64,000 bases of DNA, from contig CAZISM010000001.1 of assembly GCA_964541895.1 (NCBI GenBank), positions 22,796 through 86,795 of the forward strand, read 5' to 3'. The notes under the pieces were generated by a model. It saw only the letters and a list, made by a program, of their open reading frames with translations, was not told the DNA's origin and made no database searches. Positions 13,639-57,248 of this stretch are shown here, piece after piece. The first letter of the stretch is position 1, and each line of letters starts with the position of its first letter. This stretch comes from an uncultured Cytophagia bacterium. GTDB lineage: Bacteria; Zhuqueibacterota; Zhuqueibacteria; Residuimicrobiales; Residuimicrobiaceae. The position numbers and the translations under genes are program-made.

Positions 13639-13688
13639 TCGCCGGCCAACGCTTTCCTGACGTTAACGAATGACAAAGGATGCGGTTC

Positions 13689-14645
13689 ATGTCTGACATA
13701 CTTGTGGTGGATGATGATCCCGAAATACGGAGCTCGTTTGTGGAGATATTGCAGACGGCGGACATGCAGGTCGACACCGTAGCCGATGCGGATGAGGCGG
13801 CCAACAAAATCAAGGCAAAAAACTATGAGCTTATTCTGGTAGATTTATTGCTGCCGGGAGAGATCAACGGCATGTCTTTGATCGAATCCTTCCGCGCCCT
13901 GGTGGCCCAATCGTATATCATTGCCTATTCCGCCTACAGCGGACGTACTATTGCTGAAAAAGCGTTACGGGCCGGCGCCAACGGCTTTGTCCCCAAAGCC
14001 TATTTGAAAGATCATCTTCTGCAGACCGTTATGAATGTGTTAACCGGCCCCAAGGGCAAGACCATCCTGCCGGGCCCGGCGGCCGCAGCGCCCGAACCGT
14101 CGCCGGCACCGGCTCCTGCACCGGCTCCTGCACCGTTTTTGGAGACCAGGCCGGCCCAGGATGTAGTGCCGCTGCTGTTTCTTAACTTGCCCCGTCAACA
14201 GGTGCAGGAATTGCTGACGCTGGCTGACCAGCGTACGCTGCCGCGCGGCGATTCGTTCCTGGTGCAAAGCCAGCAGAATATCGTCACCATCGGACGCGGC
14301 CAGGCCGATCTGCTTTATCGCAACAGAAAAATAGGACAAATGAACGAAGGCGAAACCATCGGAGAAGCTTCCTTTTTCGACACCAGCAATGACAACCATG
14401 TATTCGCGCTGGTAGCAAAGAATGACTGCGTTTTGTACCTGTTTAATAAAAGCGATCTGAAAAACTATTTTAAGGATCATGGCAGAAATGTAACGCTTCG
14501 ATTCGCAGCCAACATCGTGTGGAGTGTTTCCAACACCATGATGAAATGCGTTAAAGAGCTCTATCGGACGGACGAAGTGCCGGTCAAAAGTGAATCCCTG
14601 TTTGAAAATAGAAAACCATGGTCGGCGGAGGTTCTGGTCAATTGA
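13689..14645 (+). CDS. Response-regulator receiver fused to a cyclic-nucleotide-binding (CAP effector) domain, no HTH; ORF track start 13680
   Basis: REC motifs ILVVDDD and LILVDLLLPG. (AP)n linker. cNMP-binding motif GETIGEASFF. No DNA-binding region at the C-terminus. Confidence 0.8.
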   Translation: MSDILVVDDDPEIRSSFVEILQTADMQVDTVADADEAANKIKAKNYELILVDLLLPGEINGMSLIESFRALVAQSYIIAYSAYSGRTIAEKALRAGANGFVPKAYLKDHLLQTVMNVLTGPKGKTILPGPAAAAPEPSPAPAPAPAPAPFLETRPAQDVVPLLFLNLPRQQVQELLTLADQRTLPRGDSFLVQSQQNIVTIGRGQADLLYRNRKIGQMNEGETIGEASFFDTSNDNHVFALVAKNDCVLYLFNKSDLKNYFKDHGRNVTLRFAANIVWSVSNTMMKCVKELYRTDEVPVKSESLFENRKPWSAEVLVN

Positions 14646-20244: not shown

Positions 20245-23200
20245 ATGAACAGAAAAATTCTGCCGGCTATTCTGCTTACCCTGGTTGGGTTGTGGAGTTG
20301 TGGTGGTGAGAAAGAACAGATTACCAGCAGTTATGCCGTGGATGATTTCCAGGCCGCTCAGATCCGTATTTTGGCGGACGGGCTCGCATCCACTACGCTT
20401 ACCGTTCTGGTCATGGATAGTGTTAACATGCCGGCTGCCAATATTCGGGTCTTTTTCAATACCAGCGCCGGCACCATAACCAAACAGAGCGTCACTTCAG
20501 AGTACGGCAAAGCGACCGCCACGCTGACGGGTGTGGCCAGCGAACTGGATATCACAGCGGTTGTTACAGCCACGGTAATTGACAGCTCCGCCCTGAAGAA
20601 AAGCATTCCTTCTCTATACCGGCTTTCTTTCGCCGGCGAGCCCGGAGAGGCGATACCGTCGTTAAAAAAGGCCGGAGCCGAACCTGGTCCCAGCGCAACT
20701 GTCGAAGTAACGTTTGCAGGCATTTCGTTTTCTTCCGAGCTGGAGAAATCCGTTTTGCCGGCCGATGGAATCAGCCAGGGCCAGGTGCAGATCATCTTGC
20801 GGGAAACCGTTACGGGCAAAAATATCGCCGGCGCGAAATTATCCCTAAGGGCTCGCAAGATTCACATCGTCGGTGAAACCATCACCTCGGAACGTGGTCA
20901 GGCGGAAGTGGCCTTTACGGCCGTCAGTCAGGCCGGCGACGACACGCTGTACATCGACTATGGAGCTTTTAAAAGCAGAGTGCATGTGCTCAAGTTTATG
21001 GCCACCAGACTCAATCTGACACCCGTTCACAGCAAGTTGAAATCGGACGGCAAAAGCCGCACCTCGCTGACGGCTCAATTGGTCAATCATGCCAATAATC
21101 CCGTGGTCGGGGCGACGATTCGCTTTACCTGTGATCAGGGCGTCATATCGGGAACCGCGGTTACCAACAGCCAGGGTGAAGCCATAGCCGAGCTGACCAG
21201 TGCAGCCGCCAACCGTAACGACGTTAAAGTTGTTGCCGATTTTAACGGCGTGCTGGATACGGCATGGGTGGATTATGTAAGCTCCACGGCGGCATGGTTG
21301 GAGCTCTCTTCGGAGGCGGCTGTCCTGCGAGACGGTCAGACCAAATTGACGATGAAAGCGGTGCTGACCGACGATTATCAGCTGCCGGTCGCAGATGCCT
21401 TGATCCGGTTTTCCACTTCTATCGGCAGCGTGGACAGCGTGGTAAAAACCAACAACGCCGGTGAAGCGATGATCCGATATATGCCGGATGCCGGCGAGAG
21501 TGACGTTGTAGCCGCCATCACCGCCAGTCACGATCTGCTGCGCAAAACCAGAACGGTCAAGCTGACCGGCATCAGTTTCAGCTCTGATTCTGCACCGGAT
21601 TCTATCCTGGCGGACGCCAGATCGCAATCCACGATTTCGGTGCAACTGAAAACGACCACCACCCATACGGCGCTGACGGGCGTACCGGTCTATTTTTCAG
21701 CCAGCAAGGGCCGTATCGATAACATGGTGACAACCGACCAGTACGGGATAGCCAGGGCAACGCTGACCTCCAACACGACACCCGGCTCCAGTTCCATCCT
21801 CATCACTGCCGCCGGCTTGAGTAAAACCGTAAACGTTTTTTTCCTCGGTTCTGTCGCCCAGAAAATGACCATACAGCCGCTGGGCAGCCAAAAGCCGGCT
21901 CGCGATGGCATAACTTTGCAGTCCTTCCAGATTCGTCTGCTGGACAATTTGAATAATCCGCTGGCGGATCGCAAAATTGTACTCTCCTCGCTGTACGGTC
22001 GCATCGACAGTCTGGCGACCACCGGCTCCGATGGCACGGCCGTCGTGCAGTATCGGCCTGACGCCAACAGTGCTGATGTGACGGAAACCATCACCGCCCG
22101 CTGCGGGGATCTGGCTACCAACCTGTCGTTCAAGCTGTATGGCATCTCTTTGGCGCTCTCGGTCAGTCCCGACTCACTGCCGGCAGACGGCAAATCCACG
22201 GCAGCCGTCACAGCCCAGTTGAAATACACCTCGGCCAATACGGTGATCCAGGGTGCCACCGTATCGTTCAGCTCTTCTCTGGGCAGCATTCCAACAGCCA
22301 GCGTCAGCGACGGGCTGGGAGTGGCGACCACAAAATTCACGGCGCCGATTACCGCCGGCCTGGCCACTATAACGGGCACGTATGGCGGATTGTCCAAAAG
22401 TGTTTCTGTTAAATTGGTGGCGGACACGCCGTCCACCATTCTGTTGTCGGCGGCACCTGAATTCATCTGGGTGACAGAAACCGGCAACCTGGATTTGACT
22501 TCCATCACGGCAACGGTGCTGTCCACCACCGGCGAAATCATCGGCAACGAGACCGGTCTTCGTTTCGCCATTCGCAACGGTCCCAACGGCGGTGAACAGA
22601 TCACTCCGTCCAGTGGCGCTTCCAGCCGCGAGACCTCGGTACTGCGCACGGTGCAGGGCCGGGCGCGAGCGACGCTGAAATCCGGCATCCGCTCCGGTAC
22701 GGTTGAAATCCAGGCGTATCTCGCCGAGCGGCCTGAAGTCATTTCAAGGAAATCACTGATTGTGATCCGGTCCGGACCGCCCTATATCTATGTCAATCCG
22801 GCCAACAAGAACGATTTCACCACACACATGACGCTGGCGACCGATTATCTGAATCTGTACGGCTGGAATTTTGTCAATACCTTCAACATCAGCGTGTACG
22901 TCGGCGATAAATACAACAATCCGGTCGAAGAGGGCACCACCGTCTATCTGACCACAACGGCGGGCATCGTCACCACAGATGTGAAAACCAATGCGGTAGG
23001 GAAAGGTACCGCGATTCTGATGACAACCAATCCGCGGGCCTACGTCAACCCCAAAGACGGCACAGCCCTGTCACCGCTGCGGATCCCGAATCCGAACGAT
23101 GCCGGATTGATGTTGCCGAACGCTCTGCCTACCTTTGAGGGCTGGCGGGTCAAAGATCTTTTCGATCATACCGGCGAAGGGGATGGCTGCCTGACTCTGC

Positions 23201-39488: not shown

Positions 39489-39578
39489 CCGGTGTATCAG
39501 CTCTACGCACTCTTTTGCCGCCGTGATTCCAGCAAGGAGTCAGACTCTGACAGAGAAGATTTATAAGTGAGGTGTTCC

Positions 39579-40481
39579 ATGCGCAAAGTAATTGCTTCAA
39601 TTTTTATCCTGATGGTCGCCGTGACCATCGTAGCCGCCCAGGGGAAGAAACGAGTCGCTGTGTTTACTTTCGAGGACAAAACGGCGCATACGTGGCACTG
39701 GTGGACCGGGCAGCCGGTGGGGGAGGGGATGGCGGATATGCTGATCACATCCCTTGTAAAGACGGGAAAATATACCGTGCTGGAGCGAACACAGATCGCC
39801 AAACTGATGGAAGAACAAAAGCTGGGCCAGACCGGTGCCGTCACGCCGGAGAGCGCGGCCAAAGTGGGGCAGCTGCTCGGCGTCGAACTGGCCATTATGG
39901 GTTCGGTAACCGAATTCGGCTATTCCAAGAAGGAGGTAGGGGGTGCTCTTAAAAAAGTAGGCTTTGGTGTAGGCGTAAAAAGCCAAAAAGCGACCGTTGC
40001 GGTTGATGTTCGTTTTGTCAATACCAGCAGCGGCGAGATCATGTCCGCGGAATCGGTGCGTGAAGAAGAGTCTTCCAAAGGGATTTCCCTGGACACCCAG
40101 AAATTCGATTTTGACAATCAGAGCCAATTCGACGAGTCCATCGTCGGCAAGGCGACTCGCAAAGCCATTGACAAGATGGTCGGCCTGATCGACGGTGCCT
40201 CTGCCAATGTGTCGTTCTCCGCCAAAATCATCAAAGCCGATGGTCAGATCTTTATCAATGTCGGCGCCGCATCCGGCGTTAAAGTCGGTGATGTGTACAC
40301 CGTGTACCGTAAAGGGGAAGATTTGACCGATCCGGATACAGGCCTGTCGCTGGGCGCCACCGAAAGCAAAATCGGCCGCATCAAAGTGGTCGACAATAAC
40401 ATCGGCAACGGCAAGGCCTCCTCATGTGAAGCCATCGAAGGATCCGGATTTCAGAGGAATGACCTGGTAAAACAGAAATAG
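39579..40481 (+). CDS. CsgG-family protein (curli-type outer-membrane secretion channel homologue); ORF track GTG start at 39567
   Basis: KRVAVFTFEDKT..GEGMADMLITSLVKTGKYTVLERTQIAKLMEEQKLGQTGAV..VGQLLGVELAIMGSVTEFG is the CsgG N-terminal signature. Signal peptide has no lipobox Cys. Confidence 0.75.
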   Translation: MRKVIASIFILMVAVTIVAAQGKKRVAVFTFEDKTAHTWHWWTGQPVGEGMADMLITSLVKTGKYTVLERTQIAKLMEEQKLGQTGAVTPESAAKVGQLLGVELAIMGSVTEFGYSKKEVGGALKKVGFGVGVKSQKATVAVDVRFVNTSSGEIMSAESVREEESSKGISLDTQKFDFDNQSQFDESIVGKATRKAIDKMVGLIDGASANVSFSAKIIKADGQIFINVGAASGVKVGDVYTVYRKGEDLTDPDTGLSLGATESKIGRIKVVDNNIGNGKASSCEAIEGSGFQRNDLVKQK

Positions 40482-40561
40482 CGGCAGCAATGAGCTGAAC
40501 GGGCATGGAGGAGTTGATGCAGCGTGCGACTCCTCTTTTATTTTATGGAGAGTCAGGAACT

Positions 40562-41305
40562 ATGAACATGGGCAAACAGGTGTGCATGATTCTCATGGCG
40601 ATGGCCCTGATCTGGAGTGGAACGGCGCCGGCGGCTAAACCGATCGGAACCTTTGCCTTTATCCTCGGCGGTCCGCAGGATGTTCAAGTGAAAAGCAAAG
40701 GCGGAGCGGTCTGGAATTCGGCCAAGCTGGGACTGACGGTGAGCGACGGCGACTGGATCAAGACCAAAAAAGAGTCGCGTTGTGAAATCAAACTGGCGGA
40801 CAAGAGTCTGATTCGCCTCGGTGAGGAAACCGAGTTTGAATTTACGGCGGCGAATATCACGGCGCAGCAGCGCAACGTCAAGGGCGATTTGAAAACCGGT
40901 CAGGTTTATCTTAACCTGAACACAAAAACGTCCAGCAAAAGTCAGTTTCAGATCAAGGCGCCTACTGCGGTCTGCGCAGTCCGGGGCACCATTTACCGCA
41001 TCGATGCAGACTCGACCACCCAGTGCACCGTGTACGACGGCACCGTGGACGTAGGGCCGGCCAAGTTGTGGGGTCAGCCGGTCAAGCGGGAAGGTAAAAG
41101 CCTGCAACCCTATCAGGTGCCGGGTCCGTCGCAGGTACCGGGTCCGTATGAAGTGAGCCTGGATCAATGGGTACAGATTGTCAAGGGATTCCAGATCACG
41201 GTGCGCCGGGACGGCAAATTCGCTAAAACACAATTCGATGCCCAACAGGATGCCGGGGACGAGTGGGTCAAGTGGAACAAGCAACGTGATGGCATGGTGA
41301 AATAG
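40562..41305 (+). CDS. FecR-domain secreted protein
   Basis: Signal peptide MNMGKQVCMILMAMALIWSGTAPAA. FecR-like beta segment (CEIKLADKSLIRLGEETEFEF..VRGTIYRIDAD). Confidence 0.65.
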   Translation: MNMGKQVCMILMAMALIWSGTAPAAKPIGTFAFILGGPQDVQVKSKGGAVWNSAKLGLTVSDGDWIKTKKESRCEIKLADKSLIRLGEETEFEFTAANITAQQRNVKGDLKTGQVYLNLNTKTSSKSQFQIKAPTAVCAVRGTIYRIDADSTTQCTVYDGTVDVGPAKLWGQPVKREGKSLQPYQVPGPSQVPGPYEVSLDQWVQIVKGFQITVRRDGKFAKTQFDAQQDAGDEWVKWNKQRDGMVK

Positions 41306-41316
41306 CGACACGGACT

Positions 41317-42552
41317 ATGGCCTCTTCCAAATTCGAAAAGATTGACAGCATCATCGTCGTATTCCTTTCTCTGCTCTTCGCTCTTTTTCTATATGAAATG
41401 CGACTGGCGCTGATACCGCCGTTTCTTACGATCATCCTGGTCATTTTACTGCTGCCGCTGCGGCAGCACGCCTATGTTCGCTATATCATCGGTGTGGTGA
41501 TCGCCATATTTGTCTTCTGGTTCATGCGTGAAACCAAAGCCATCATCGCGCCTTTTGCCATCGCGCTGGTATTGGCCTATCTTTTTGACCCGCTGGTCAC
41601 CGCATTGGAAAAAAGACACATTGCGCGCCTGGCCAGCGTATCCATTATTGTGGTTTCGACCGGGTTGATTTTCGGCAGCCTGCTCTATTTCATGATACCC
41701 CGCATGTTCGCGGAAATGCGCGATTTGCTGGTGTTTATGCTCGGGACGCCCACCCGTTTGACCGAATGGTTGAAAGCGGATGGCGCCGAGTTTTTTAAGA
41801 GTCTAGGCATCGATCCGGTGCAGGTGGAGGCGTACATTGCCGCCAAACTGCCGCTCAAGTACTACCAATGGCTGGAAGCGGCCCTCAACTGGGTTATGGC
41901 ACTGCCCAAAAACGCGCCGCGTATTTTCAGCGGCCTGGTCTACGCTGTTCTCATTCCTTTTCTGTTTTTTTATATTCTCAAGGATTTCGACAAGGTCAAG
42001 CGCTGGACCAAAGAGCTGCTGCCCATAGAAAGCAGCTGGGTGGTCAAAGACTATCTGGACCGCATCAATGCCATCATCAGCGGCTTTTTTCGCGGCCAGC
42101 TCATCGTCTGCCTGACGGTTGGAATTTTGACTACGCTGGTGTTGCTGATTCTGCAGGTGCAATATGCCGTTTTGCTCGGCCTGCTGGCCGGCGCGCTCAA
42201 CATTGTGCCCTATGTCGGGCTGGGCATCACGCTGTTTATCGGTCTGCTCATTGGCTTAACCGGGCCCAATCCGATGGTCACATCGGCAAAAATCGTGTTT
42301 GCCATCGAAGGGGTTCGCTTGCTGGAGGGGTCGTTTATTGCCCCGAGAATCGTCGGCGATCGCGTCGGGCTGCATCCGGTTTGGGTGATCTTTTCCATCC
42401 TGATTTTTGCGCATCAGCTCGGCGTTCTGGGACTGGTGATTGCCGTACCGCTGGCAGCCAGCTTGAAGATATTTATCTCCATAGGCATTCGAAGTTACCG
42501 AAGAAGGGTCTGGCGCCGGCCAGTGCGGAAACATGAAGATACGTCGCGTTGA
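41317..42552 (+). CDS. AI-2E family transporter (PerM/YhhT, UPF0118)
   Basis: 8-TM protein. Conserved C-terminal GLLAGALNIVPYVG..GLLIGL motif. Confidence 0.8.
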   Translation: MASSKFEKIDSIIVVFLSLLFALFLYEMRLALIPPFLTIILVILLLPLRQHAYVRYIIGVVIAIFVFWFMRETKAIIAPFAIALVLAYLFDPLVTALEKRHIARLASVSIIVVSTGLIFGSLLYFMIPRMFAEMRDLLVFMLGTPTRLTEWLKADGAEFFKSLGIDPVQVEAYIAAKLPLKYYQWLEAALNWVMALPKNAPRIFSGLVYAVLIPFLFFYILKDFDKVKRWTKELLPIESSWVVKDYLDRINAIISGFFRGQLIVCLTVGILTTLVLLILQVQYAVLLGLLAGALNIVPYVGLGITLFIGLLIGLTGPNPMVTSAKIVFAIEGVRLLEGSFIAPRIVGDRVGLHPVWVIFSILIFAHQLGVLGLVIAVPLAASLKIFISIGIRSYRRRVWRRPVRKHEDTSR

Positions 42553-47191: not shown

Positions 47192-48496
47192 ATGAGGTAC
47201 AAGTTAGTCGTTCTATTCGTGTGTGCCATGGCCTTTGTGACCCAGGCAGCAGATGCACCCAAAGAGAAGGAAGCAAAGCTGGGCATCGGCCTTAATGCGG
47301 GCGTGCAAAAACCGTATTGCGACGTTCTGCACACCGGTTTGGCACCGGCCGGCGAAGTAATGATGCGCCTGCTGTTAGGCAAAATGTTCAACATCTCTCT
47401 TTCTGTAGGTGGAGGCCTGCTGAGTGACGGCTTTTCCTATTCCACCTTTAAAACGACGATGGCGGTGGCGGATTTAAAGCTTAACGTCAATCTGAGCACC
47501 ACAGGCCGCATGCGACCATACCTCTCGGTGGGTGCCAGCGGCTACAGCTTTGATTATAAAAAAGAAAAGCCGTGGGCGATCGGCTTGCCCGGCAATGAGG
47601 GCAAGCGTTTTACCTCCAGCGCTGTTATCTTTGGCGGCGGCGTCGAGTATTTGACCTCGCCGAAATTTGCCATCAACCTCTTTGCCGATTACCGGCATAC
47701 ACCGACTGATTTGCTGGATGGTGCCGAAATCGGCAAAGCCAAGGACGGCTATCTCAACGGCAGAGTCGGTTTCACCTATTATCTGGGCGGCCGTTCCATC
47801 AAAAAAGCCGGCAAGCCGGAGGACGATCTGATCGCCCTGCAACAGGGTGAGGCCGGCGATCTGAACGCAGTGAACAAGGACAAATTGGCGACCTTTGAAG
47901 CCAAGCTCGACAAACTGGAAGCCGGTGACGCCGACCTCTCCATGGAGTCCTATGTGCGACTAAAGTCGCGCGTGGACGAACTTGGCCAGTTGATAGAGAG
48001 CAAAGAGAAAGAGCTGGACGATCTGCACTCGGCGCTGGATTTTAAAAATCGCCGCATCGCGGATCTGGAATCTTCGCTGCAAAAGGCAACAAGCGTCGGC
48101 ATTCCTGCCGGCAGCGTGAGCGTGACGGACTTTAGCCCGGCCTACGATCAGGCTCTGCGCAATTTCTACAGCCGCAACTACAACGAAGCCATTGCCGTGT
48201 TCGAACAGCTCAAGATCAAATATCCCAACCATGCCCTGGCAAGCAACTGCCAATACTGGGTGGGAGAGTGTTACTTTGGCATGCAGAACTATCAGCAAGC
48301 CCTGGACGCATTTCAAGGTGTTTTCAACTGGGCCAATTCCACCAAAAAGGATGATGCAACCCTCATGCTGGGCAGGTGCTATCTCAACCTGAAAGATCAG
48401 GAAAAAGCGCGCGGCTACTTTAAGGGGGTCATCGACGATTATCCGGATAGCGAGTATCGCGAAAAAGCCAGACAATGGCTGAATAGAATAGGCTGA
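47192..48496 (+). CDS. Outer-membrane beta-barrel (OmpA-N-like) fused via coiled coil to YbgF/CpoB-like TPR domain
   Basis: Signal peptide. Beta-strand-rich N-terminal half with aromatic-ended strands. Coiled coil (KLDKLEAGD..IADLESSLQK). C-terminal YbgF-like TPR (NYNEAIAVFEQLKIKYPNHALASNCQYWVGECYF). Confidence 0.7.
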   Translation: MRYKLVVLFVCAMAFVTQAADAPKEKEAKLGIGLNAGVQKPYCDVLHTGLAPAGEVMMRLLLGKMFNISLSVGGGLLSDGFSYSTFKTTMAVADLKLNVNLSTTGRMRPYLSVGASGYSFDYKKEKPWAIGLPGNEGKRFTSSAVIFGGGVEYLTSPKFAINLFADYRHTPTDLLDGAEIGKAKDGYLNGRVGFTYYLGGRSIKKAGKPEDDLIALQQGEAGDLNAVNKDKLATFEAKLDKLEAGDADLSMESYVRLKSRVDELGQLIESKEKELDDLHSALDFKNRRIADLESSLQKATSVGIPAGSVSVTDFSPAYDQALRNFYSRNYNEAIAVFEQLKIKYPNHALASNCQYWVGECYFGMQNYQQALDAFQGVFNWANSTKKDDATLMLGRCYLNLKDQEKARGYFKGVIDDYPDSEYREKARQWLNRIG

Positions 48497-48501
48497 AAAT
48501 T

Positions 48502-48538
48502 AAAAAGGCCGACCTGTAACAGAGGTTGGCCTTTTTTC
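48502..48538. terminator. Bidirectional rho-independent terminator (A5-ggccgacc/ggttggcc-T6)
   Basis: Read directly, between convergent genes. Confidence 0.6.
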
Positions 48539-48575: not shown

Positions 48576-48758
48576 CTATTTCTTCTCCCCATATTTTTCC
48601 ACAAACGACCTGATCTCGTCAAGGTGCTGCAAAATCAGTTTTGCTTTTCCCACACCAAAACTGAACGGAAACCGTTCACCCGGATTCAAGGTCAGCACCG
48701 GGTTCCCTTTGTATTCGCCCACGATCGGGCCGGCAGGTTTTTCTTCCTGATCGCTCAT
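48576..48758 (-). CDS. Small hypothetical protein (60 aa) immediately downstream of the cyclase gene
   Basis: Co-oriented, 11-nt gap after the cyclase stop. No recognisable domain. Overlaps two + strand ORFs of similar size. Confidence 0.35.
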   Translation of the reverse strand: MSDQEEKPAGPIVGEYKGNPVLTLNPGERFPFSFGVGKAKLILQHLDEIRSFVEKYGEKK

Positions 48759-48769
48759 AGGATTTCCTC

Positions 48770-50881
48770 TTATTTATGTTCCATGTCATAGACGCCGTTC
48801 CAGTTATCCGGAACGGGATTTTCCAGATTATTCAGACAACGGCCGGTATACAGGCGGGAAGGGCCATCAGAGGGAAAATAGCGCAACACCCTGCGGAATT
48901 GACGCAAGGACTCTGCCCAGCGTCGCTCCCGGTACGCCTGTACGCCTTCGCCGAAAATGTCAACGATAAACTCCTGTTCGATGTCAGGCAGGGTCTTGAT
49001 GCCACGCAATTCGTAGATCCGGAGAGGTTTGCTTCTTCCCATCACCCGCACCAGATCCAGTTCACGAACGCAGACCAGATCCTTGACGGGTTCATAGGTT
49101 TGCTCGCTGATGATGATGGTGGTTTCATAATACTTGTTCAGACCTTCCAGGCGGGCGCCCACGTTTACCTCGTCGCCGATTACTGTGTAGTCGAACATCT
49201 GGCGCGAGCCCAGGTTGCCAACGATCACTTTGCCGCTGTTGATGCCGATACCGATGTTAAAGTATTCCTTGTAGTCAATGGACCAACGCTTCTGTATCTG
49301 CCGCAGGTTATCCACCATATCCAAAGCGGTCCTGCAGGCCCGTTCAGCATGATCCGCGTAGAAATAGGGGGCGCCATACACCGCCATGATTTCGTCGCCG
49401 ACAAATTTGTCGAGGGTGCCGTCGTATTTAAAGATGATCTCGACCATTTCAGACAGATATTCCTGCAAGCGATGAACGACCACTTCAGGTTCATGGGTTT
49501 CTGAAAACGAAGTAAACCGTCTGATATCGGAAAACAGCACGGTCAATTCCCTGCGCTCTCCGCCATAGGAGGGCAACTCGCCGCTGCTGAGCATTTTTTC
49601 TACCACGCTGGGGGCAACATACTGCTGAAAGGTTTTGCGAATACGGGCTTTTTCTCTCTGTTCGGTAACCGTCTGGAAGGCCAGTCCGACAATGTAGGTG
49701 AATAGCACGGTGAGTACCGGCATGACCAGGTTGAGAACGGTACGGTAATGAATGAAGAGAAGATACCCGGCCGTAACCGCCAGGAGCCCCAGGCTGACGC
49801 TGACAAAAAGTGCGCGAAACGGTTTGAGGGACAGGGTGACCGCGCTGGTCAACAGGGCCAACAGGATCACAAGAGTGGCTGTTAGCCACAGGGGGGCATC
49901 GCGCAGAAACGCATGGTGAAGCAGCGTATTCAAGGCATTGGCGTGCATCTCTACGCCCGGCAATTTTTGTCGCTTGCCGCCATGCTCAAAAAAAGGGGTG
50001 TATTTGTTATCCTGCAATTCTTCCGCCGAAGCGCCGACGAACACTATTTTGTCGCGAAAGGTGTTCCACAGCAGATGCTGTTCAAAGACATCGGTATCTT
50101 CATCTTCGGCGAGATCAAACTCGGCGTCATCCAGAAGAGTGGAGAGTGAATAAGTTCTGAACGTCTGTGCCGGACCTGCGAAATTGACGTACATGGTGTT
50201 ATCCGAAACGGTGGGCACCTGCAGCGGTCCGTACTGAAAAAAGCCTCCGGCCACCCGGGGCGGCGCCAGGCCGGGACGGACAGCGTGCAGGGACAAAAAG
50301 GCCTGCACAGCCAGCGGGAAATAGGGGCGGTCTGGCATCTGCTGAAATAGCAAGTATTGCCGGATAAAGCCGTCTGCATCTTCGACGACGTTGACCAGGC
50401 CGATGTCAGCGCCTGTGGCCAGCAGGGGCGCGACGGGCTTGAGAATAAAGTGGTTGTTGACGCTGCGGCGACTCTGATCCAGGACCACCTTGCCGGCCAG
50501 TATGACGTTGCCTGCTCCGGCAACGGCGGCGGCCAGCGAGTCGTCTTCCTGCGGGTGTTCCCGGCTGGGCTCGGTGAACTCTACATCAAAGACGATCAGG
50601 CGGGCGCCGGCCAGCTGCAGGTTGTGGATCATGCGCGCGAAATAGGTTCTCGGATAAGGCCATTTGGTCGGCAGGCTTTTCATGCTTTCATCGTCGATGG
50701 CCACAATAACGATAGAGGTATCGGCTGACGCGTCAGCTCCGCGCAGGCTGAAAAGAGTATTGATAGTACGAAGTTGAAAGTTGCGTGATACACCCAGTGA
50801 AGAGAGGGCCGCGGCCAGCATTAATCCGAGAGAGGCAAACCGCAGAACGTTAAAAGCCAGTTTTGTCGCCTTTTTGCTCAT
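48770..50881 (-). CDS. CHASE2-domain membrane sensor fused to class III adenylate/guanylate cyclase
   Basis: N-terminal TM, periplasmic CHASE2 region, three TM helices. Catalytic domain motifs TVLFSDIRRFT, FVGDEIMAVYG, GIGINSGKVIVGNLGS. Confidence 0.85.
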   Translation of the reverse strand: MSKKATKLAFNVLRFASLGLMLAAALSSLGVSRNFQLRTINTLFSLRGADASADTSIVIVAIDDESMKSLPTKWPYPRTYFARMIHNLQLAGARLIVFDVEFTEPSREHPQEDDSLAAAVAGAGNVILAGKVVLDQSRRSVNNHFILKPVAPLLATGADIGLVNVVEDADGFIRQYLLFQQMPDRPYFPLAVQAFLSLHAVRPGLAPPRVAGGFFQYGPLQVPTVSDNTMYVNFAGPAQTFRTYSLSTLLDDAEFDLAEDEDTDVFEQHLLWNTFRDKIVFVGASAEELQDNKYTPFFEHGGKRQKLPGVEMHANALNTLLHHAFLRDAPLWLTATLVILLALLTSAVTLSLKPFRALFVSVSLGLLAVTAGYLLFIHYRTVLNLVMPVLTVLFTYIVGLAFQTVTEQREKARIRKTFQQYVAPSVVEKMLSSGELPSYGGERRELTVLFSDIRRFTSFSETHEPEVVVHRLQEYLSEMVEIIFKYDGTLDKFVGDEIMAVYGAPYFYADHAERACRTALDMVDNLRQIQKRWSIDYKEYFNIGIGINSGKVIVGNLGSRQMFDYTVIGDEVNVGARLEGLNKYYETTIIISEQTYEPVKDLVCVRELDLVRVMGRSKPLRIYELRGIKTLPDIEQEFIVDIFGEGVQAYRERRWAESLRQFRRVLRYFPSDGPSRLYTGRCLNNLENPVPDNWNGVYDMEHK

Positions 50882-50918
50882 GTTGCCCTGTTCAGAGAGT
50901 GCGCCGCGGCGAGCCGGA

Positions 50919-53501
50919 CTAGAAATATTTATCGTATCGAATCCGGAAGAGTTTATCCGTATAAGCGCCCGTGCTGCTGTTGGCCGTCGTCTTCATATTG
51001 ATAAAGTCGGCGTCTGCTTTGAGGGTATGTTGCCTGGCTATGGTGAAGGTTAATCCTAATCGCGCCTGATCTCGATCCAGAGAACCGATCGCCGCAGAGG
51101 CACCAGCCATACGAATCCTTCTGCCATCAATGTACGAAGTTAAACGATCCCGCACAATAGCATATTCGGCGGCGCCGCCGATCATGGTGTAGTCGAGTTG
51201 GCCCTGCTGCAGCGCTCCGTTGTTCTGGTTGGTGGCATAGCTCAACGTCGCCTTGAGCGGGAAAGAAAATTGTGTGGCCCACGAGATCATGGCGATGGAG
51301 GTGCTGATTTCCCGGCTGAGATAACCGGGCAAACGCGTGGCGTTGTACTCGTCGATGTTTCGGGAGGAGGTAAAGCTGAGATTCAACGTGTGCTGCAGAT
51401 CAAACAGATGCACGTCGTATCCCAATTGCGCGGAAAGATCGTTATAGATGGTGCGTTCGCGATTATCCACCAGGGTGGTATCCAGGGTAAGGCCGGTGTT
51501 GAGAATTCTGGTTTCGACCAGGGATACGCCGTTGTCGCGATGATGGTCGCGTTTGCTGAGGGTCAGTTGCGGCAAACCCATGCCGGGATAAAAGGTGATG
51601 CCATAGTTCAGAGTCTTGAGGGAGATGGCCGGATTGGCATTCTGTTCGCTGAAATTATCCAGATAATCTTCGTACCCCAGATTGACGTACAGTTTGTTTT
51701 TGAAGAGACGGATGCGGTCAGAGAAATAGAGGCCGGCGATGTCCTTGCGCAGCCAGGCGTTGGCCAGGGAAAGGTAGGCGCCGCCGATGGATTTGTAGCC
51801 CACCTGCAGCAGGTTGTGGAAATAATCCAGTTTGATGGAGCCGTCATAGGCGACAGAGCTCATTTCCAGCGGGTTGATGGGCGAGGTGCTTTCGTTAATG
51901 ACCAGATATTTTTCCAGACTTTGTGGGTCGATGGGCAGTTCCGTGTCAGAACCGAAAATACGTTTCACATCATCCGAGTTGATGGAACCGGGCGCTGTGT
52001 TGTTGGTGAGAAAACTCATGGCCGCGTTGGCCTCGATGACAAAACGGCCGCGATCGAAAACGATTTTCATGTCCGGCCCGAACACCAGGTTGTCTTTGGG
52101 CATGGTGCCGTACCTGATGGACTTGATCTGATCCTTGACCTTGATCAGGGACAGGCCCAATTGAAATCGTTTGCCGCTGCCCAGGCTGGGGCGGATGCCA
52201 ATCAGGTCCTGACCATAGGTGCCGTAGCCGGCCATAGCGATAGAATCGGCGCCACTGGCGGATTTGAGCAACAGCGTCCGTCCTTCGATGGCGCGATTGG
52301 TCTCGCCGCTGATAAAATCAACATTGATGAATCCCAGGTGCAGAAAACCGGAGAGGCCGCGCACCCGTTTGCCCCACAGAATCAGCGGATTATACATGGG
52401 ATGATTATCACCGGCGGCGATGCCCAGCCAGGAGGTATACAGGGTCATGTAATACTGGTTGCGCGGCTGATAGGTGCGATCTTCCTGCGACGTAAGATAC
52501 ACATTGCCTTGATAATGCAAACCGCCGTACTGACCGTTAAAATCAAATCCACCCGTGTAGTAGGCGTTGTCAGTAGCGTGCACCTGTTCGCTGCGGCCAT
52601 CGGCAAAGATGTGGATCTGTCTGTTTTGTTTCACCGCCGGCTTTTGTTTTTCCTCTGCCACGCGGAACGAGAGGCCGACAGGCGGGAGGTCCACCCCGGC
52701 TATGCTTCTGCCTTCGATTTCAACAGAATGTTTGCCGGGCTTTAAATGTTTGGGTTCCAGAATGACCAGGCTGGCGCTGATGGAAGCGATGGTAGTCATG
52801 TCAGCCCCGTCCAGCCAGATCTTGATCGAGCTGGAATCCACCTGTACCTCTGAAGTGATGAGACTCACGGCAATGGACAATTCATCGGCGGCTACTTCTT
52901 CATCCGGATCCGGCGACAGGAACAGCAGCGGCGAACCCGTGATCTCCGCTGCGGATTCGGATGGCGCAGGCGATGCTTGTGCTTTGCTGGAGTCTGTGCG
53001 GGCGGCCGCTTTGGATTGAAATTCGGGAAAGGCAGCCGCCTGGGCCGCCGCTTTGATGCTTGATACTTTCTCAGGCACGCTGTTTGGTTCAGGGACCGGG
53101 AGCGCTGATTCCGTGACGAGGATCTCTTCCGGCCGATTGTAGGGATTGATTTCCGGATAGGACAACACCGTCTCGTTGTCGACCGCAGCGGAGATAAAGT
53201 ACTGCATGCGCGGCGCTTTCACGGCGGCGGCCGGAATGGTGGCGATCCAGCTCGAACCCTGCGGTGTCATCTGAATCTGATGAAAGGTGGTCTCGTTGAT
53301 GTTCCGATAGTATACTCTCGCCTGATACACGCGCAGCAGAGAGGGGGTAAAATTAGCCTCCAGCGTTACCGCCGTACCGGCAGCGGCTGCAGTGATCGGC
53401 TGATGCAACAAGCGCGCTATCTGCGTCAAGCCGGAGGCCGGACATACCAGCAGAGCCGATATACTGATCCACAGTGACAACCGTTTCAGGAACATATTCA
53501 T
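50919..53501 (-). CDS. Large outer-membrane beta-barrel protein of unknown family (860 aa)
   Basis: Signal peptide MNMFLKRLSLWISISALLVCPASG. C-terminal aromatic ...IRYDKYF. Alternating amphipathic strands. Ala/Ser/Pro-rich linker after the N-domain. Confidence 0.7.
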   Translation of the reverse strand: MNMFLKRLSLWISISALLVCPASGLTQIARLLHQPITAAAAGTAVTLEANFTPSLLRVYQARVYYRNINETTFHQIQMTPQGSSWIATIPAAAVKAPRMQYFISAAVDNETVLSYPEINPYNRPEEILVTESALPVPEPNSVPEKVSSIKAAAQAAAFPEFQSKAAARTDSSKAQASPAPSESAAEITGSPLLFLSPDPDEEVAADELSIAVSLITSEVQVDSSSIKIWLDGADMTTIASISASLVILEPKHLKPGKHSVEIEGRSIAGVDLPPVGLSFRVAEEKQKPAVKQNRQIHIFADGRSEQVHATDNAYYTGGFDFNGQYGGLHYQGNVYLTSQEDRTYQPRNQYYMTLYTSWLGIAAGDNHPMYNPLILWGKRVRGLSGFLHLGFINVDFISGETNRAIEGRTLLLKSASGADSIAMAGYGTYGQDLIGIRPSLGSGKRFQLGLSLIKVKDQIKSIRYGTMPKDNLVFGPDMKIVFDRGRFVIEANAAMSFLTNNTAPGSINSDDVKRIFGSDTELPIDPQSLEKYLVINESTSPINPLEMSSVAYDGSIKLDYFHNLLQVGYKSIGGAYLSLANAWLRKDIAGLYFSDRIRLFKNKLYVNLGYEDYLDNFSEQNANPAISLKTLNYGITFYPGMGLPQLTLSKRDHHRDNGVSLVETRILNTGLTLDTTLVDNRERTIYNDLSAQLGYDVHLFDLQHTLNLSFTSSRNIDEYNATRLPGYLSREISTSIAMISWATQFSFPLKATLSYATNQNNGALQQGQLDYTMIGGAAEYAIVRDRLTSYIDGRRIRMAGASAAIGSLDRDQARLGLTFTIARQHTLKADADFINMKTTANSSTGAYTDKLFRIRYDKYF

Positions 53502-53517
53502 GGGATCCTTTAGTAAG

Positions 53518-54189
53518 CTATTTTTTCTTGAAGCGGATTTTCAATGTCTTTTTCTGACCTTCTGAATTCTGAAACTCGATGTCGAGATCCTGCTCCTCAT
53601 CAGCCAGTGCCCAGTCGGGTACGCTGCCGCCGGGAGAGGAGGAGGGCTTTTCGCCTTTTTTGGAAAATCCCATCTCACCTTTGCCGACCAAAACTTCGCC
53701 GAGTTCGTTCAACAGCTGGACCAGGCCCTCTACACCGAAAATAAAGGTCTGTCCCAGGTTGTCTACGACCGTGTAAAACTCGGTCCCTTTCACCGCAGCA
53801 ACGCCGGAAGGGGTTTGTACGCGATAGCCGGCGCCGTTGGGGGTGACCTTGCTCCACAATTCACCCACGCTTACGTACAGTTCTTTGCTGATGCCTTTTT
53901 CCTTCTTTTCGCCCTTGATTTCCACATCGGAGTTGGCGCGTATTTTCATCATCGTCTTGTCATCCAGGAACACCAGCGAAACCAGGGCGTTTTCCTGAGT
54001 GCGGATGCGATCGCCGCTATGGACACGGCTGCCTTTTTTGAGAACGGCCCAATCCTGGTTGGCTGTTTTTATGCTGGCGGAGCCGACCACCTTGAGAACA
54101 AAGGCGATTTCTCTGACCGGGGCGGCGGTAAGCCAGACAGCCCAAACGAGCATCAGAGCAGCAAGCGAAAAAGAAATTCTAGCGGACAT
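53518..54189 (-). CDS. FecR-domain secreted protein
   Basis: Start at the Met with GAGAGAGG RBS. Signal peptide MSARISFSLAALMLVWAVWLTAAPV. FecR-like beta segment. Lys-rich C-terminal tail. Confidence 0.65.
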   Translation of the reverse strand: MSARISFSLAALMLVWAVWLTAAPVREIAFVLKVVGSASIKTANQDWAVLKKGSRVHSGDRIRTQENALVSLVFLDDKTMMKIRANSDVEIKGEKKEKGISKELYVSVGELWSKVTPNGAGYRVQTPSGVAAVKGTEFYTVVDNLGQTFIFGVEGLVQLLNELGEVLVGKGEMGFSKKGEKPSSSPGGSVPDWALADEEQDLDIEFQNSEGQKKTLKIRFKKK

Positions 54190-54205
54190 ATTTACCTCTC
54201 TCAGC

Positions 54206-55342
54206 TCATTCACAGGATACATGGACAATCGTGTACTCGCCGTTTTTAATTTTAGCCAACAGAGCGAGAACCTGATCCATAGAGTAGGGTCTGCCATTGA
54301 TGGTAAAGACGCCAGTCGGCGTAAAGCCGTTGAGCGGACCGGAGGCGATCAGCAGCGCTGCCAGTTGATCACCCAGCACGCCGCCCAGCTCGGACAGCAG
54401 GAACGAAGGGGCCCCCTCGCCGCTGCTGGAGAAATCAACCAGTTTGAACGCCCAGATTTCGCCGGGCAATTCCACCTCGGTTCCGGAGGTGGCTGCCAAT
54501 CCTGTGATCTGCCAGTAATAGGTTTTGCCGCGCTCCAACGGCCACACGCCGCTGGCTGGGTACTGATAGGCGGTGGTGGCGAGAACGTCGATGCCGTTGG
54601 CCAAAGCCCGGTCGATGCGGAAGGTGCGGTCAAAACGCACCCGGTCGCGCATAACTTCTTCAGGGCTGGCGCCGGCATGCACATCCGGCAGCTTTTCAGC
54701 AATGCGCAGGCGGAATTTGTCCAGATTGGAATCCCAGCGAAACAGGGGCAACAGAGTATAAACAGGCATGGGTTCTTCCCGGCCGGCCGGGCTGCCTGGA
54801 CTGATCAGAGTCAGGGTGGAGGGATTGTCCACTCGAATCGAAATCTCGGCGTGGCTGACGTGAGAGGAATTCAATTGATGCAAATCAAAAAGAAAATAAT
54901 AGGTATCAGAGGGCAGCTTTCCCGTGGCCAGCAGACGATTTTTCAGTTCATTTCCGGCCCCTTCGATAGAATAGTCCTGCAGGCGAAATTGCTGCGCCTC
55001 GGTGAAGAGATTCTGATTGGTTAATCGAATGGCTTGTGCCGGATTCAGCGTAAAAGGCTGCGTCCGCCCGGAAGCCAGTTCGCCCATGGCATCGGAGCGG
55101 ATGGTCAGCACCAGGTAACAGGGGACCGCTGTGAGTGAAGAATTGTTCATAACAATTGAAAAAATATCACCGCTGCTGGTCCCTTTGCCCGTCAAATTAA
55201 AATCACTCAGGAAGAATATTCTCAAGCCAGGGTTCAGGAGTTGGGCTGAAATATTAACCTGCTGAGCAAAGCCTCCATGGACCATGAGGACGAGGACCAA
55301 CAACAAGGTTAATGACATGACCGGAAAACGGGTAGCGTGCAT
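54206..55342 (-). CDS. Secreted hypothetical protein; first gene of the FecR/OMP/CHASE2-cyclase operon
   Basis: Start at the Met with GGAGGGG RBS (55342). Signal peptide MHATRFPVMSLTLLLVLVLMVHGGFAQQ. No recognisable domain. Confidence 0.6.
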   Translation of the reverse strand: MHATRFPVMSLTLLLVLVLMVHGGFAQQVNISAQLLNPGLRIFFLSDFNLTGKGTSSGDIFSIVMNNSSLTAVPCYLVLTIRSDAMGELASGRTQPFTLNPAQAIRLTNQNLFTEAQQFRLQDYSIEGAGNELKNRLLATGKLPSDTYYFLFDLHQLNSSHVSHAEISIRVDNPSTLTLISPGSPAGREEPMPVYTLLPLFRWDSNLDKFRLRIAEKLPDVHAGASPEEVMRDRVRFDRTFRIDRALANGIDVLATTAYQYPASGVWPLERGKTYYWQITGLAATSGTEVELPGEIWAFKLVDFSSSGEGAPSFLLSELGGVLGDQLAALLIASGPLNGFTPTGVFTINGRPYSMDQVLALLAKIKNGEYTIVHVSCE

Positions 55343-55383
55343 AACCCCTCCAAAGGTTCGATTGCAACTATCATACATAAAGT

Positions 55384-55399
55384 TACAATTCGAATGCCA
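55384..55399 (-). promoter_or_regulatory. Sigma-54-like promoter candidate on minus strand: TGGCAT-N5-TTGTA (imperfect -12)
   Basis: Reverse complement of 55384-55400 reads ttGGcattcgaatTGTa. Correct spacing, but -12 is GT not GC. About 30 nt upstream of the 55342 start. Confidence 0.25.
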
Positions 55400-55538
55400 A
55401 AAAAATATTATTGATTTATTTATAGTTAGTGCAGGACAAGCAGGCTGGAATATGTTGTATTTTGAAATAGTGTATCATATAAATACAGATAACATTGCAT
55501 TTATAAAGTATTATTCCTATATTGTTAAGCGGGTAAAA

Positions 55539-56360
55539 ATGATATGTTTTGTTCATGATGAGCGGAAATCAGCCAAACAGATTAACAAATCCGTGTTACT
55601 ATCCGGCAAAAATATTCTGATCAGCGGTGCCTCCTCCGGGATCGGACAGGAACTGGCGAAACAGCTGGCGGCAAAAGGCAACCGTCTTTTTTTAATGGCT
55701 CGACGGCAGGACTTGCTGCACGATCTGGTGCAGCAGCTCGCGCCGCATGCGCAGGGGCATCGATATTATCTGTGCGACGTCAGCCATCGCAGCCAGGTGC
55801 AGGAGGTGTGCCGCCGCATTCTCGATGAGACCTCAGAGTTAGATCTGCTCATTTTAAACGCCGGCGTCGGCGGCGGTTTTGACAGTCTGCACATGGATGT
55901 CGACAATATGCGCTATCAGTTTGATGTCAATTTTTGGGGTGTGGTCTATCCACTGGCCGACCTGCTGCCGGGCATGGCGGCGCGCCGAACTGGCCAGGTG
56001 GCGGTGATGAGCAGTCTGGCGGGGTATCGCGGCCTGCCGCGGTCGGCGCCCTATTCGGCCAGCAAGGCCGCCTTGCGCAACCTTACCGAAAGCCTGCGCA
56101 TCGATCTGCAGCAGGCGGGCATAACGTTTTCGCTGATCTCGCCCGGTTTCGTCAAAACACCCATGACGGATCTCAATGACTTTTATATGCCCTTCATGAT
56201 GACGGTGGACAAAGCCGGCCGGATTATTATTCGAGGTTTGGAGAAGCAAAAAACAGAAATTCATTTTCCTTACCGTCTTTCCCTTTTGGTCAAGGCCGCA
56301 CGCTGGCTGCCTGACCGTTGGTACGCGCGCTTATTCAAAATAACCACATTCAGCTGGTAA
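55539..56360 (+). CDS. Short-chain dehydrogenase/reductase (SDR family)
   Basis: Cofactor motif ISGASSGIG. Catalytic YxxxK (YSASKAA). First ATG after an AT-rich promoter region. Confidence 0.75.
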   Translation: MICFVHDERKSAKQINKSVLLSGKNILISGASSGIGQELAKQLAAKGNRLFLMARRQDLLHDLVQQLAPHAQGHRYYLCDVSHRSQVQEVCRRILDETSELDLLILNAGVGGGFDSLHMDVDNMRYQFDVNFWGVVYPLADLLPGMAARRTGQVAVMSSLAGYRGLPRSAPYSASKAALRNLTESLRIDLQQAGITFSLISPGFVKTPMTDLNDFYMPFMMTVDKAGRIIIRGLEKQKTEIHFPYRLSLLVKAARWLPDRWYARLFKITTFSW

Positions 56361-56381
56361 GGAATCGCCACGGATGAACCT

Positions 56382-57248
56382 ATGAAAAAACTGGCCTTTG
56401 TTCTTTTCTGTTCTTTTTTGTTGGGATGCCGGACCACGACAGATCCTGTCGACAACCGGCTTGTCATTGCCACCAGCATTGCGCCCCTGGCGGATTTCGT
56501 TCGGCAAGTGGGCGGTGAGCGTGTACGCGTCTTCAGCATCGTCCCCTCCGGCGCCAATCCGCACACCTTTGAAATGACTCCGGACCAGCTGTCCCAGCTG
56601 GCCAAGGCGCGTGTAATGTTTATCAACGGCATCGGTCTGGAGTACTGGGCCGATAAAGTCCTTGATAACTTTATTTCGCACGGTCTTCAGGTCGTGGATG
56701 TTTCAACCGGTATACCGGTCCTGGCGGACGAAGATCACGCCGGCGGTAATCCGCACGTCTGGCTCAATCCGCAGTATGCCGCCAAGCAGGTTGAAAGCAT
56801 CCGTCAGGGCTTGTGCCGGGTTGATAGTGCTTTCGCCGCCTATTACAACCAAAACGCCGATCAGTACCTCGCCCGTTTGCAGCAGTTGGATCGCGAGATC
56901 GAACAGGAAATCAGGCAGTGGCGTTACCGCTCGTTTATCTGTTTTCATCCCTCCTGGAACTATTTTGCCGATCGTTACGGGCTGATCCAGGCGGCGGTCA
57001 TTGAAAAGCGCCCCGGTTTTGAGCCAACCCCCGGCGAGGTGGCGGAAATCATAACCCTTGTTCGCAAGATCGAAGCCAAAGCGATTTTCGCAGAAATGCA
57101 ATTTCCGCTCAAAATCAGCCAGATGATTGCCCAGGAGGCCGGCGCCATGGTGCTGGTGCTGGATCCGTTGGGAGAAGATACGGAGCATTACACCTACGTG
57201 GATATGATACGCGCGAATGTGCAAACCATGGCAAAGGCGTTACGATAA
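56382..57248 (+). CDS. Metal (Zn/Mn) ABC transporter substrate-binding lipoprotein (ZnuA/TroA family)
   Basis: Lipobox LLGCRTT. Metal-ligand histidines (NPHTFEMTP, GGNPHVWLNP). Confidence 0.75.
   Translation: MKKLAFVLFCSFLLGCRTTTDPVDNRLVIATSIAPLADFVRQVGGERVRVFSIVPSGANPHTFEMTPDQLSQLAKARVMFINGIGLEYWADKVLDNFISHGLQVVDVSTGIPVLADEDHAGGNPHVWLNPQYAAKQVESIRQGLCRVDSAFAAYYNQNADQYLARLQQLDREIEQEIRQWRYRSFICFHPSWNYFADRYGLIQAAVIEKRPGFEPTPGEVAEIITLVRKIEAKAIFAEMQFPLKISQMIAQEAGAMVLVLDPLGEDTEHYTYVDMIRANVQTMAKALR

Follow-up and report, generated by a model that had tools for sequence, protein, structure and literature searches.

The stretch of DNA analysed here (64,000 nt, referred to below as the window) covers positions 22,796 to 86,795 of contig CAZISM010000001.1 in assembly GCA_964541895.1, from an uncultured bacterium labelled Cytophagia and placed by GTDB in the Zhuqueibacterota. 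Between 48576 and 55400, its minus strand carries five co-directional open reading frames (ORFs), called g1 to g5 in what follows, whose start codons were set by Shine-Dalgarno-like sequences. The first four encode an FN3-like protein, a FecR-domain protein, a large outer-membrane beta-barrel and a class III adenylate cyclase with a CHASE2 sensor, and together they probably form a four-component trans-envelope sensory module with cyclic AMP (cAMP) as its output. The named relatives of the proteins in the window belong to candidate division KSB1, the lineage from which the window most likely derives. The five genes are the following:

54206-55342, minus strand: g1, 378 aa; its ATG lies 3' of GGAGG, and an alternative longer ORF extends up to 55378
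53518-54189, minus strand: g2, 223 aa; the ATG 3' of GAGAGG is taken as the real start
50919-53501, minus strand: g3, 860 aa
48770-50881, minus strand: g4, 703 aa
48576-48758, minus strand: g5, 60 aa; ribosome-binding site AAGAGGA

Every gene is preceded by a ribosome-binding site, and the gaps from g1 through to g5 measure 16, 16, 37 and 11 nt. The mechanical ORF of g2 runs further, to 54297, and would overlap g1. An initial annotation of the window had described five co-directional genes with gaps of 11-38 nt; the ORFs and their order were verified, with gaps of 11-37 nt.

The product of g1 is secreted or periplasmic and consists of a signal-peptide-like N-terminus, two FN3/immunoglobulin (Ig)-like beta-sandwich domains and a small C-terminal alpha/beta domain. 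Neither g1 nor g3 nor g5 matched any Pfam or NCBIfam model. By hydropathy, the proteins encoded by g1, g2 and g3 have one N-terminal hydrophobic segment apiece, which resembles a signal peptide. In g2, a FecR domain (PF04773, E 1.6e-11) is preceded on its N-terminal side by a weak match to MtxA_N/DUF7354 (PF24045, E 2.4e-6, under the cut-off), and neither a cytoplasmic anti-sigma domain nor an internal transmembrane (TM) segment was found by Pfam, start-codon and hydropathy analysis. At its C-terminus (53518-53590), g2 has an acidic linker leading into two strands with the motif L[DE]IEF...K.LKIRY, a feature present in all g2 orthologues; this hairpin may be a docking element that works by beta-augmentation.

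For g3, Pfam and NCBIfam gave no match at E <= 0.1 and the PDB no sequence match. An AlphaFold2 model was built from 29 homologues, with a mean predicted local distance difference test score (pLDDT) of 76.7 and values mostly between 80 and 92 in the barrel. It begins with a signal-peptide-like N-terminal helix, which is followed by these regions:

53112-53414, minus strand: g3 domain 1, an Ig-like beta-sandwich by model secondary structure (aa 30-130), presumably periplasmic
52938-53105, minus strand: disordered linker of g3, rich in Pro, Ser and Ala (aa 133-188), pLDDT 30-43, poorly conserved in the alignment
52659-52934, minus strand: g3 domain 2, a second Ig-like beta-sandwich (aa 190-281), all-beta in the model, pLDDT 74-86
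50922-52625, minus strand: g3 beta-barrel (aa 293-860), with 28 DSSP strand elements in the model

As modelled, the barrel would have 26-28 membrane strands, two of the 28 DSSP elements being only six residues long. Among its loops, one of 50 residues (aa 500-549) includes helices, and the motif GD..P.YN.LILWGKRVRG (aa 364-382) is invariant. The connections from odd to even strands measure 2-50 residues (mean about 12) and those from even to odd strands 2-7 (about 3.5), the canonical pattern of extracellular loops and periplasmic turns, which would place the N-terminal domains in the periplasm, together with the C-terminus. The last residues, ...RYDKYF, are a typical aromatic end signal of outer-membrane proteins. 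The best Foldseek match was MtrB, at 8% identity and TM-scores of 0.39/0.49, a weak likeness at the level of the fold only; chaperone-usher pores and TonB-dependent transporters are further structural neighbours.

Whether the barrel is TonB-dependent, BamA-like or new had been left for classification in the initial annotation. In the Pfam and NCBIfam scans it matched none of Plug, TonB_dep_Rec, STN and POTRA/Bac_surface_Ag; it is neither TonB-dependent nor BamA-like and apparently belongs to an undescribed family for which neither database has a model. An exhaustive profile search returned 6303 cluster representatives at E <= 1e-3, some of which match the Ig-like domain only, and 773 at E <= 1e-30. 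A family of just 28 relatives, the result of a word-index search, was discarded as a tool artefact in view of these 6303. When g3 was compared by tblastn with all PLSDB plasmids, no real match appeared. Domain 1 of g3 also occurs elsewhere: the module is repeated 17-20 times in tandem in giant proteins of 3000-4000 aa (P0093, P0111, P0166 and P0173), and P0093, the one of these that was scanned, also carries PKD, Big_7 and beta-helix domains. Pfam has no dedicated model for this domain, which gave only a weak GlgE_dom_N_S signal.

The CHASE2 domain of g4 (PF05226, aa 21-345) was recognized at E 1.3e-53, with 182.6 bits against a cut-off of 26.3, and the Guanylate_cyc domain (PF00211) at E 3.3e-24. 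The latter occupies the following interval:

49028-49552, minus strand: g4 catalytic domain (aa 444-618), PF00211; best PDB matches at E 5.5e-36 to 6.6e-25

The layout of g4 reads TM1, periplasmic CHASE2, three TM segments, catalytic domain and a tail resembling tetratricopeptide repeats (TPR), its topology coming only from a crude Kyte-Doolittle scan with peaks at aa 8-30 and about 326-400 (three peaks) and a weaker one at 116-134 within CHASE2. The closest PDB alignments of the catalytic domain were with Synechocystis Cya2, its engineered adenylate-cyclase variant, Pseudomonas aeruginosa CyaB and Spirulina CyaC. Aligned with CyaB, CyaC and Cya2, g4 shows the metal-binding residues D452 and D496 and the transition-state residues N573 and R577, and its specificity pair consists of K492 (in GTLDKFVGD) and T566 (in DYTVIG), where Cya2 has Glu and Gly. 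D452, K492, D496, T566, N573 and R577 are invariant in 41 g4 orthologues, and from these six canonical residues, including the Lys/Thr pair, g4 is predicted to be a class IIIb adenylate cyclase whose product is cAMP. The output, earlier given as cAMP or cyclic GMP (cGMP), can thus be narrowed: the specificity residues show no degeneracy and speak for cAMP, Lys492 and Thr566 being those of class IIIb adenylate cyclases, and against cGMP, for which the guanylate cyclase Cya2 has Glu and Gly. CyaB and CyaC, whose catalytic domains align with g4 at E 1.7e-35 and 6.6e-25, have the same Asp/Asp metal, Lys/Thr specificity and Asn/Arg transition-state pairs, whereas their sensors are MASE2 or GAF/PAS domains and that of g4 is CHASE2.

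Related loci were collected by exact protein look-up and by scanning a single genome of each species, and hidden Markov models (HMMs) of g1-g5 were run on six-frame ORFs. The 45 loci gathered in this way, two of which are the same contig, come from metagenome-assembled genomes labelled candidate division KSB1, Calditrichota, Neomarinimicrobiota and 'Deferribacteres', and from third-party assemblies labelled 'Cytophagia', 'Lentisphaeria' and 'Gemmatimonadota'. The FecR gene stands directly before the barrel gene in all testable loci (40/40), g1 lies ahead of the FecR gene in 36 of 36, and a CHASE2 cyclase directly 3' of the barrel gene was found in 40 of the 41 loci with enough downstream sequence. 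The order g1-g2-g3-g4 is kept while the identity of the barrel to g3 drops to 25-27%. Because homologue E-values are very low and the order persists in distant relatives, the arrangement is far beyond chance, and since the flanking genes vary between clades, g1-g4 are, as judged from sequence, a module rather than background synteny. The union of an extracytoplasmic FecR protein and a giant outer-membrane barrel with a CHASE2 class III cyclase, which the initial annotation had put forward together with a check of gene order in relatives, is therefore upheld by the domains and by an order conserved in several candidate phyla. The fifth gene is distributed differently. An ORF 68% identical to g5 follows the cyclase in locus L001, and g5 is confined to seven KSB1-type loci (HMM E 1e-23 to 1e-43) and absent from the other related loci; it had no PDB match either. 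It is an accessory cytoplasmic protein of a KSB1 subclade.

The NsrA-CyaK pathway of Sinorhizobium meliloti is the only CHASE2/FecR-type pathway with experimental support. In this bacterium, the CHASE2 cyclases CyaK and CyaD1/D2 depend on the outer-membrane barrel protein NsrA to perceive a signal (PMC7529298, PMC13001267), and the signal to which NsrA-CyaK responds is an external protein (PMC7529298). CyaD1, the gene of which is paired with that of the FecR protein SMc02177, produces cAMP constitutively when it lacks CHASE2 (PMC5498481), an indication that CHASE2 is inhibitory. By analogy, these experiments are a precedent for the trans-envelope signalling that the initial annotation had read from the window, and that reading gains from it (PMC7529298, PMC13001267). 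On pSymB, a 1190-aa gene annotated 'FecR domain-containing protein' lies directly upstream of cyaK and overlaps the cyaK start; its product has FecR at aa 66-160, TPR at about aa 417-587 and a C-terminal barrel. We take this gene to be nsrA, to judge by the description in PMC7529298. The 1190-aa protein fits NsrA as described, with its barrel at aa 600-1200 (PMC7529298). Aligned with aa 1-284 of NsrA, g2 reached 26% identity over 183 aa (E 2e-16), a stronger match than with the FecR paralogue of the window (22%, E 8e-10), and g4 matched CyaK at 30.6% identity across 82% of g4 (E 5e-60).

In both systems, the gene of a CHASE2 class III adenylate cyclase comes directly after the sequences that encode an outer-membrane barrel and a FecR domain. 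The FecR module of NsrA is homologous to g2 and CyaK to g4, both barrels have about 570-600 residues, and the output is cAMP, as predicted for g4. NsrA, however, is a single FecR-TPR-barrel polypeptide, whereas FecR (g2) and barrel (g3) are separate genes here; the N-terminal domains of g3 are Ig-like where NsrA has TPR repeats, and the conserved FN3-like g1 is additional. The hosts differ as well, being Alphaproteobacteria on one side and KSB1, Calditrichota and Neomarinimicrobiota for g1-g4. The g1-g4 module would thus be a split-component relay of the NsrA-CyaK type, in which the barrel family, not detectably homologous to that of NsrA, and the extra partner are new and the overall concept is known.

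Secreted FecR-type proteins encoded next to CHASE2 receptors have been described elsewhere. The BiofilmReg operon of Burkholderia, as presented in PMC5192318, combines a LysM-FecR protein with a CHASE2 histidine kinase, and a related operon of a FecR protein and a kinase is reported there for P. aeruginosa PAO1. A cluster in Campylobacterota is described as containing a CHASE2 cyclase, a FecR-domain protein, a TPR protein and a phosphodiesterase (PMC9239204), and in Magnetospirillum mtxA is followed by a CHASE2 cyclase (PMC4439547); the weak match of g2 to MtxA_N recalls the latter. As outlined in these sources, the clusters differ from g1-g4 in having neither a g3-type barrel nor g1, and the Burkholderia output is a histidine kinase instead of a cyclase. 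The FecA-FecR-FecI system shares with g1-g4 an outer-membrane barrel that signals via a periplasmic FecR domain to the inner membrane; it differs in its TonB-dependent transducer, anti-sigma domain and extracytoplasmic function (ECF) sigma factor, all lacking in g1-g4, and in releasing a sigma factor where g1-g4 would use a second messenger. A further arrangement was seen in Azospirillum sp. B510 (locus L047, pAB510c 488419-502467), where a CHASE2 adenylate cyclase gene is followed by that of a ShlB/FhaC-type POTRA barrel; the other neighbour of the cyclase gene encodes a 233-aa hypothetical protein without Pfam hits, and a gene for a beta-helix repeat protein lies close by. CHASE2 cyclases hence adjoin outer-membrane barrels of at least three unrelated families: NsrA/TonB-like, ShlB/FhaC-like and g3-like.

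In the relay that we propose, a cue at the outer membrane, be it a ligand, a macromolecule or a surface perturbation, would alter the g3 complex. The change would cross the periplasm, from outside to inside, via protein-protein contacts that involve g2, g1 and the tethered Ig-like domains of g3, with g2 probably acting through its C-terminal hairpin. On reaching CHASE2, the signal would relieve the inhibition of the cytoplasmic cyclase dimer, cAMP would rise and a cAMP receptor would presumably read it. As the barrel is very wide and its nearest fold is that of MtrB, the g3 lumen may well be occupied by a protein, probably a plug or a partner threaded through it as in MtrAB, LptDE and RcsF-OMP. 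MtrB (a 26-strand porin sheathing MtrA), LptD-LptE and RcsF-OMP resemble the modelled g3 in that their barrels are wide and hold a partner linking periplasm and surface, and differ from it in that the g1-g4 module has no cytochromes, LPS (lipopolysaccharide)-transport genes or lipoprotein. We tentatively put forward a stronger version, possible but on present evidence doubtful, in which g3-type barrels sheathe or thread g2 or g1 and pass a surface event mechanically to CHASE2, making g1-g4 a new receptor found in several phyla. If this were true, CHASE2 would generally sense protein partners of interchangeable outer-membrane barrel families and not small ligands.

CHASE2 is a widespread bacterial sensor domain, and the account in PMC5192318 names no direct ligand for it as identified. 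What CHASE2 domains perceive would be answered if such a mechanical receptor exists, and NsrA-CyaK, the only worked example, suggests that CHASE2 listens to an outer-membrane protein. The g1-g4 cassette is an independent, strictly conserved version of this arrangement, its separate genes allow genetic and biochemical dissection, and its hosts are abundant uncultured lineages, namely KSB1, Calditrichota and Marinimicrobia (SAR406). Should the proposed relay hold, outer-membrane barrel, FecR adaptor and CHASE2 would represent a general principle of signalling from the envelope to a second messenger, and a barrel family of hundreds to thousands of members would receive its first function.

Several observations weigh against a cAMP-producing sensory module of the NsrA-CyaK kind. 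When the g3 barrel was compared with that of NsrA by hhalign, the probability was 0.1% with the NsrA sequence and 0.2% with a 28-sequence profile of NsrA barrels; relatives of the NsrA barrel match PF00593 (TonB_dep_Rec) and g3 does not. With both hhalign runs negative, no sequence homology of the two barrels was detected, and the analogy is therefore architectural. Among the 41 loci with enough downstream sequence, the sole exception, L044 (4077-8784), has g1-g2-g3 without an adjacent CHASE2 cyclase and a divergent PAS-HD_5 (HD-GYP-like) gene upstream of the trio, so that the trio can exist without a neighbouring cyclase. The related loci were all reached via similarity to g3, and their conservation describes one orthologous group and not all 6303 remote relatives. 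In the cyclase, the Arg that CyaB, CyaC and Cya2 have before the DYT motif is Met562 in g4 (codon 49196-49198), which could lower or alter activity, to judge by the alignment; the orthologues have Leu in most of the KSB1 clade and Arg in the Neomarinimicrobiota clade. This Arg is probably the phosphate/bicarbonate-contacting residue of enzymes resembling soluble adenylyl cyclase. Finally, that g1-g5 form an operon is a prediction from their spacing.

The same proteins could also serve as a monitor of envelope integrity, with g1, g2 and g3 reporting a perturbation of the outer membrane or periplasm to the CHASE2 cyclase instead of receiving a ligand. The analogy here would be RcsF, a protein that threads through outer-membrane proteins and signals damage to LPS or the outer membrane, and it suits a module in which several beta-sandwich proteins without enzymatic function accompany a barrel so wide that it needs an occupant. 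It also agrees with a position amid housekeeping genes with variable flanks, with a broad distribution in free-living uncultured lineages and with the lack of any ligand-binding domain of a known type in the Pfam and NCBIfam scans. The sequence is compatible with integrity monitoring and ligand sensing alike, but NsrA-CyaK, the only characterized architectural relative, responds to an external protein signal (PMC7529298), and we regard a monitor as rather unlikely. Lower still do we place a role in transport or secretion, in which g1-g3 would serve either for uptake, as a channel, or for export, with g1 displayed on the surface, the cyclase would be co-regulated or monitor the load, and g3 would be no receptor. 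Such a role would account for translocation barrels (MtrB, chaperone-usher pores and TonB-dependent transporters) being the best structural neighbours of g3, for the retention of g1-g2-g3 in L044, for the recurrence of g3 domain 1 in giant proteins resembling surface proteins and for the secretion barrel of the ShlB/FhaC type beside the Azospirillum CHASE2 cyclase. However, the Pfam and NCBIfam scans revealed no energizing component in the module (TonB box, plug, POTRA, chaperone or ATPase), FecR domains are known in signalling or interaction and not in transport, and the presence of the cyclase as the immediate neighbour in 40 of 41 loci across phyla argues for direct functional coupling.

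A FecR domain (PF04773) encoded beside a large outer-membrane barrel also brings to mind classical Fec-type signalling by a TonB-dependent transducer, a FecR anti-sigma factor and an ECF sigma factor. This was rejected and is effectively refuted by the domain content: g2 has no anti-sigma domain or internal TM segment, Plug, TonB_dep_Rec and STN are all missing from g3, the partner conserved with them is a cyclase, and no ECF sigma gene was found beside the module, either in the scanned flanks within the window or among the called genes of the related loci. The other reading concerns the target of cAMP. In other bacteria, type IV pili are known to be under the control of cAMP, as with Vfr/CyaB in Pseudomonas. 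In the window, a gene for a protein resembling a fusion of a receiver and a cyclic-nucleotide (cNMP)-binding domain (REC-cNMP), at 13680-14645 on the plus strand, has a T2SSE ATPase gene on either side, and its locus further encodes T2SSF and a secretin. That the cAMP made by g4 controls this motor, similar to those of type IV pili or type II secretion systems, through the REC-cNMP protein is very unlikely in our view. The cNMP domain scored 26 bits against a Pfam cut-off of 27.5 and matched PKA-R at E 0.007, and in the PKA-R/PKG alignment a His takes the position of the Arg of the phosphate-binding cassette, so the domain, on this alignment, may be unable to bind cAMP or cGMP. The two loci are also about 35 kb apart, with no conserved linkage in any related locus. 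The axis from an envelope cue through a cyclic nucleotide to the pilus motor, drawn in the initial annotation, is unsupported and speculative, as it joins only two genes about 35 kb apart in the window. The REC-cNMP gene does exist; its description as the only cNMP receptor does not stand, a 64-kb window being too small a sample of the genome. Searches with phmmer using an approximate Escherichia coli CRP or the C-terminus of the REC-cNMP protein returned nothing but the query protein and hence no second cNMP/CRP receptor in the window, though this is a crude probe that does not establish absence.

The second FecR-domain paralogue of the window lies at 40505-41305 on the plus strand, 23 nt 3' of a CsgG-like gene (39567-40481). 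It had been described as heading an operon; the paralogue was found, but it is not the head of its operon, because the CsgG-like gene precedes it. The stretch 39567-42552 (plus strand) comprises the CsgG-like gene (PF03783, E 5.5e-39), the second FecR gene and then a gene for an AI-2E family transporter. The first two pair a FecR protein with another family of outer-membrane secretion channels.

Three further features border the g1-g5 cluster:

55343-55640, minus strand: AT-rich intergenic region of about 300 nt upstream of g1, the probable site of the operon promoter
48502-48531, minus strand: likely intrinsic terminator 3' of g5, GGCCAACCT-7 nt-AGGTCGGCC followed by TTTTT, read by eye
47192-48496, plus strand: convergent gene for a small OMP_b-brl outer-membrane barrel with a coiled coil and TPR/YfiO-like repeats (Pfam)

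A promoter-like consensus match lies upstream of g1 at 55537-55510, at a frequency of such matches that is about that of chance. The terminator-like hairpin (48531-48502) was missed by the consensus scan because its stem has one mismatch; it could be bidirectional and common to the operon and the convergent gene. Match numbers in the promoter and terminator consensus scans were at chance level, and these scans were not used as evidence. In 10 KSB1-type loci, a homologue of the gene at 47192-48496 follows close behind the module in convergent orientation. This gene could be a sixth component, as TPR repeats are also present in NsrA and in the Campylobacterota CHASE2 cluster (PMC9239204), and its synteny could be explained by the shared ancestry of closely related genomes.

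Two long ORFs run antisense to the module on the plus strand, one of 515 aa inside g3 (51198-52745) and one of 341 aa inside g1/g2 (53999-55024). Since the minus-strand genes that they overlap are conserved, they are probably non-coding by-products of codon composition. Upstream of the module, a divergent short-chain dehydrogenase/reductase (SDR) gene and a znuA/ABC zinc-uptake cluster occupy 55284-57248 (plus strand), as they likewise do in L001 (2919-4565); this flank is lineage-level synteny outside the module, because the flanks differ in other clades. In the Neomarinimicrobiota-type clade (21 loci), a co-directional REC-PglZ gene with the architecture of PorX, absent from the window, follows about 60 nt 3' of the cyclase, for example at L003:11190-12758 and L046:8521-10095, and is itself followed by tsaE and tsaD. 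In that clade, REC-PglZ may belong to the module as its fifth gene or serve as an output partner.

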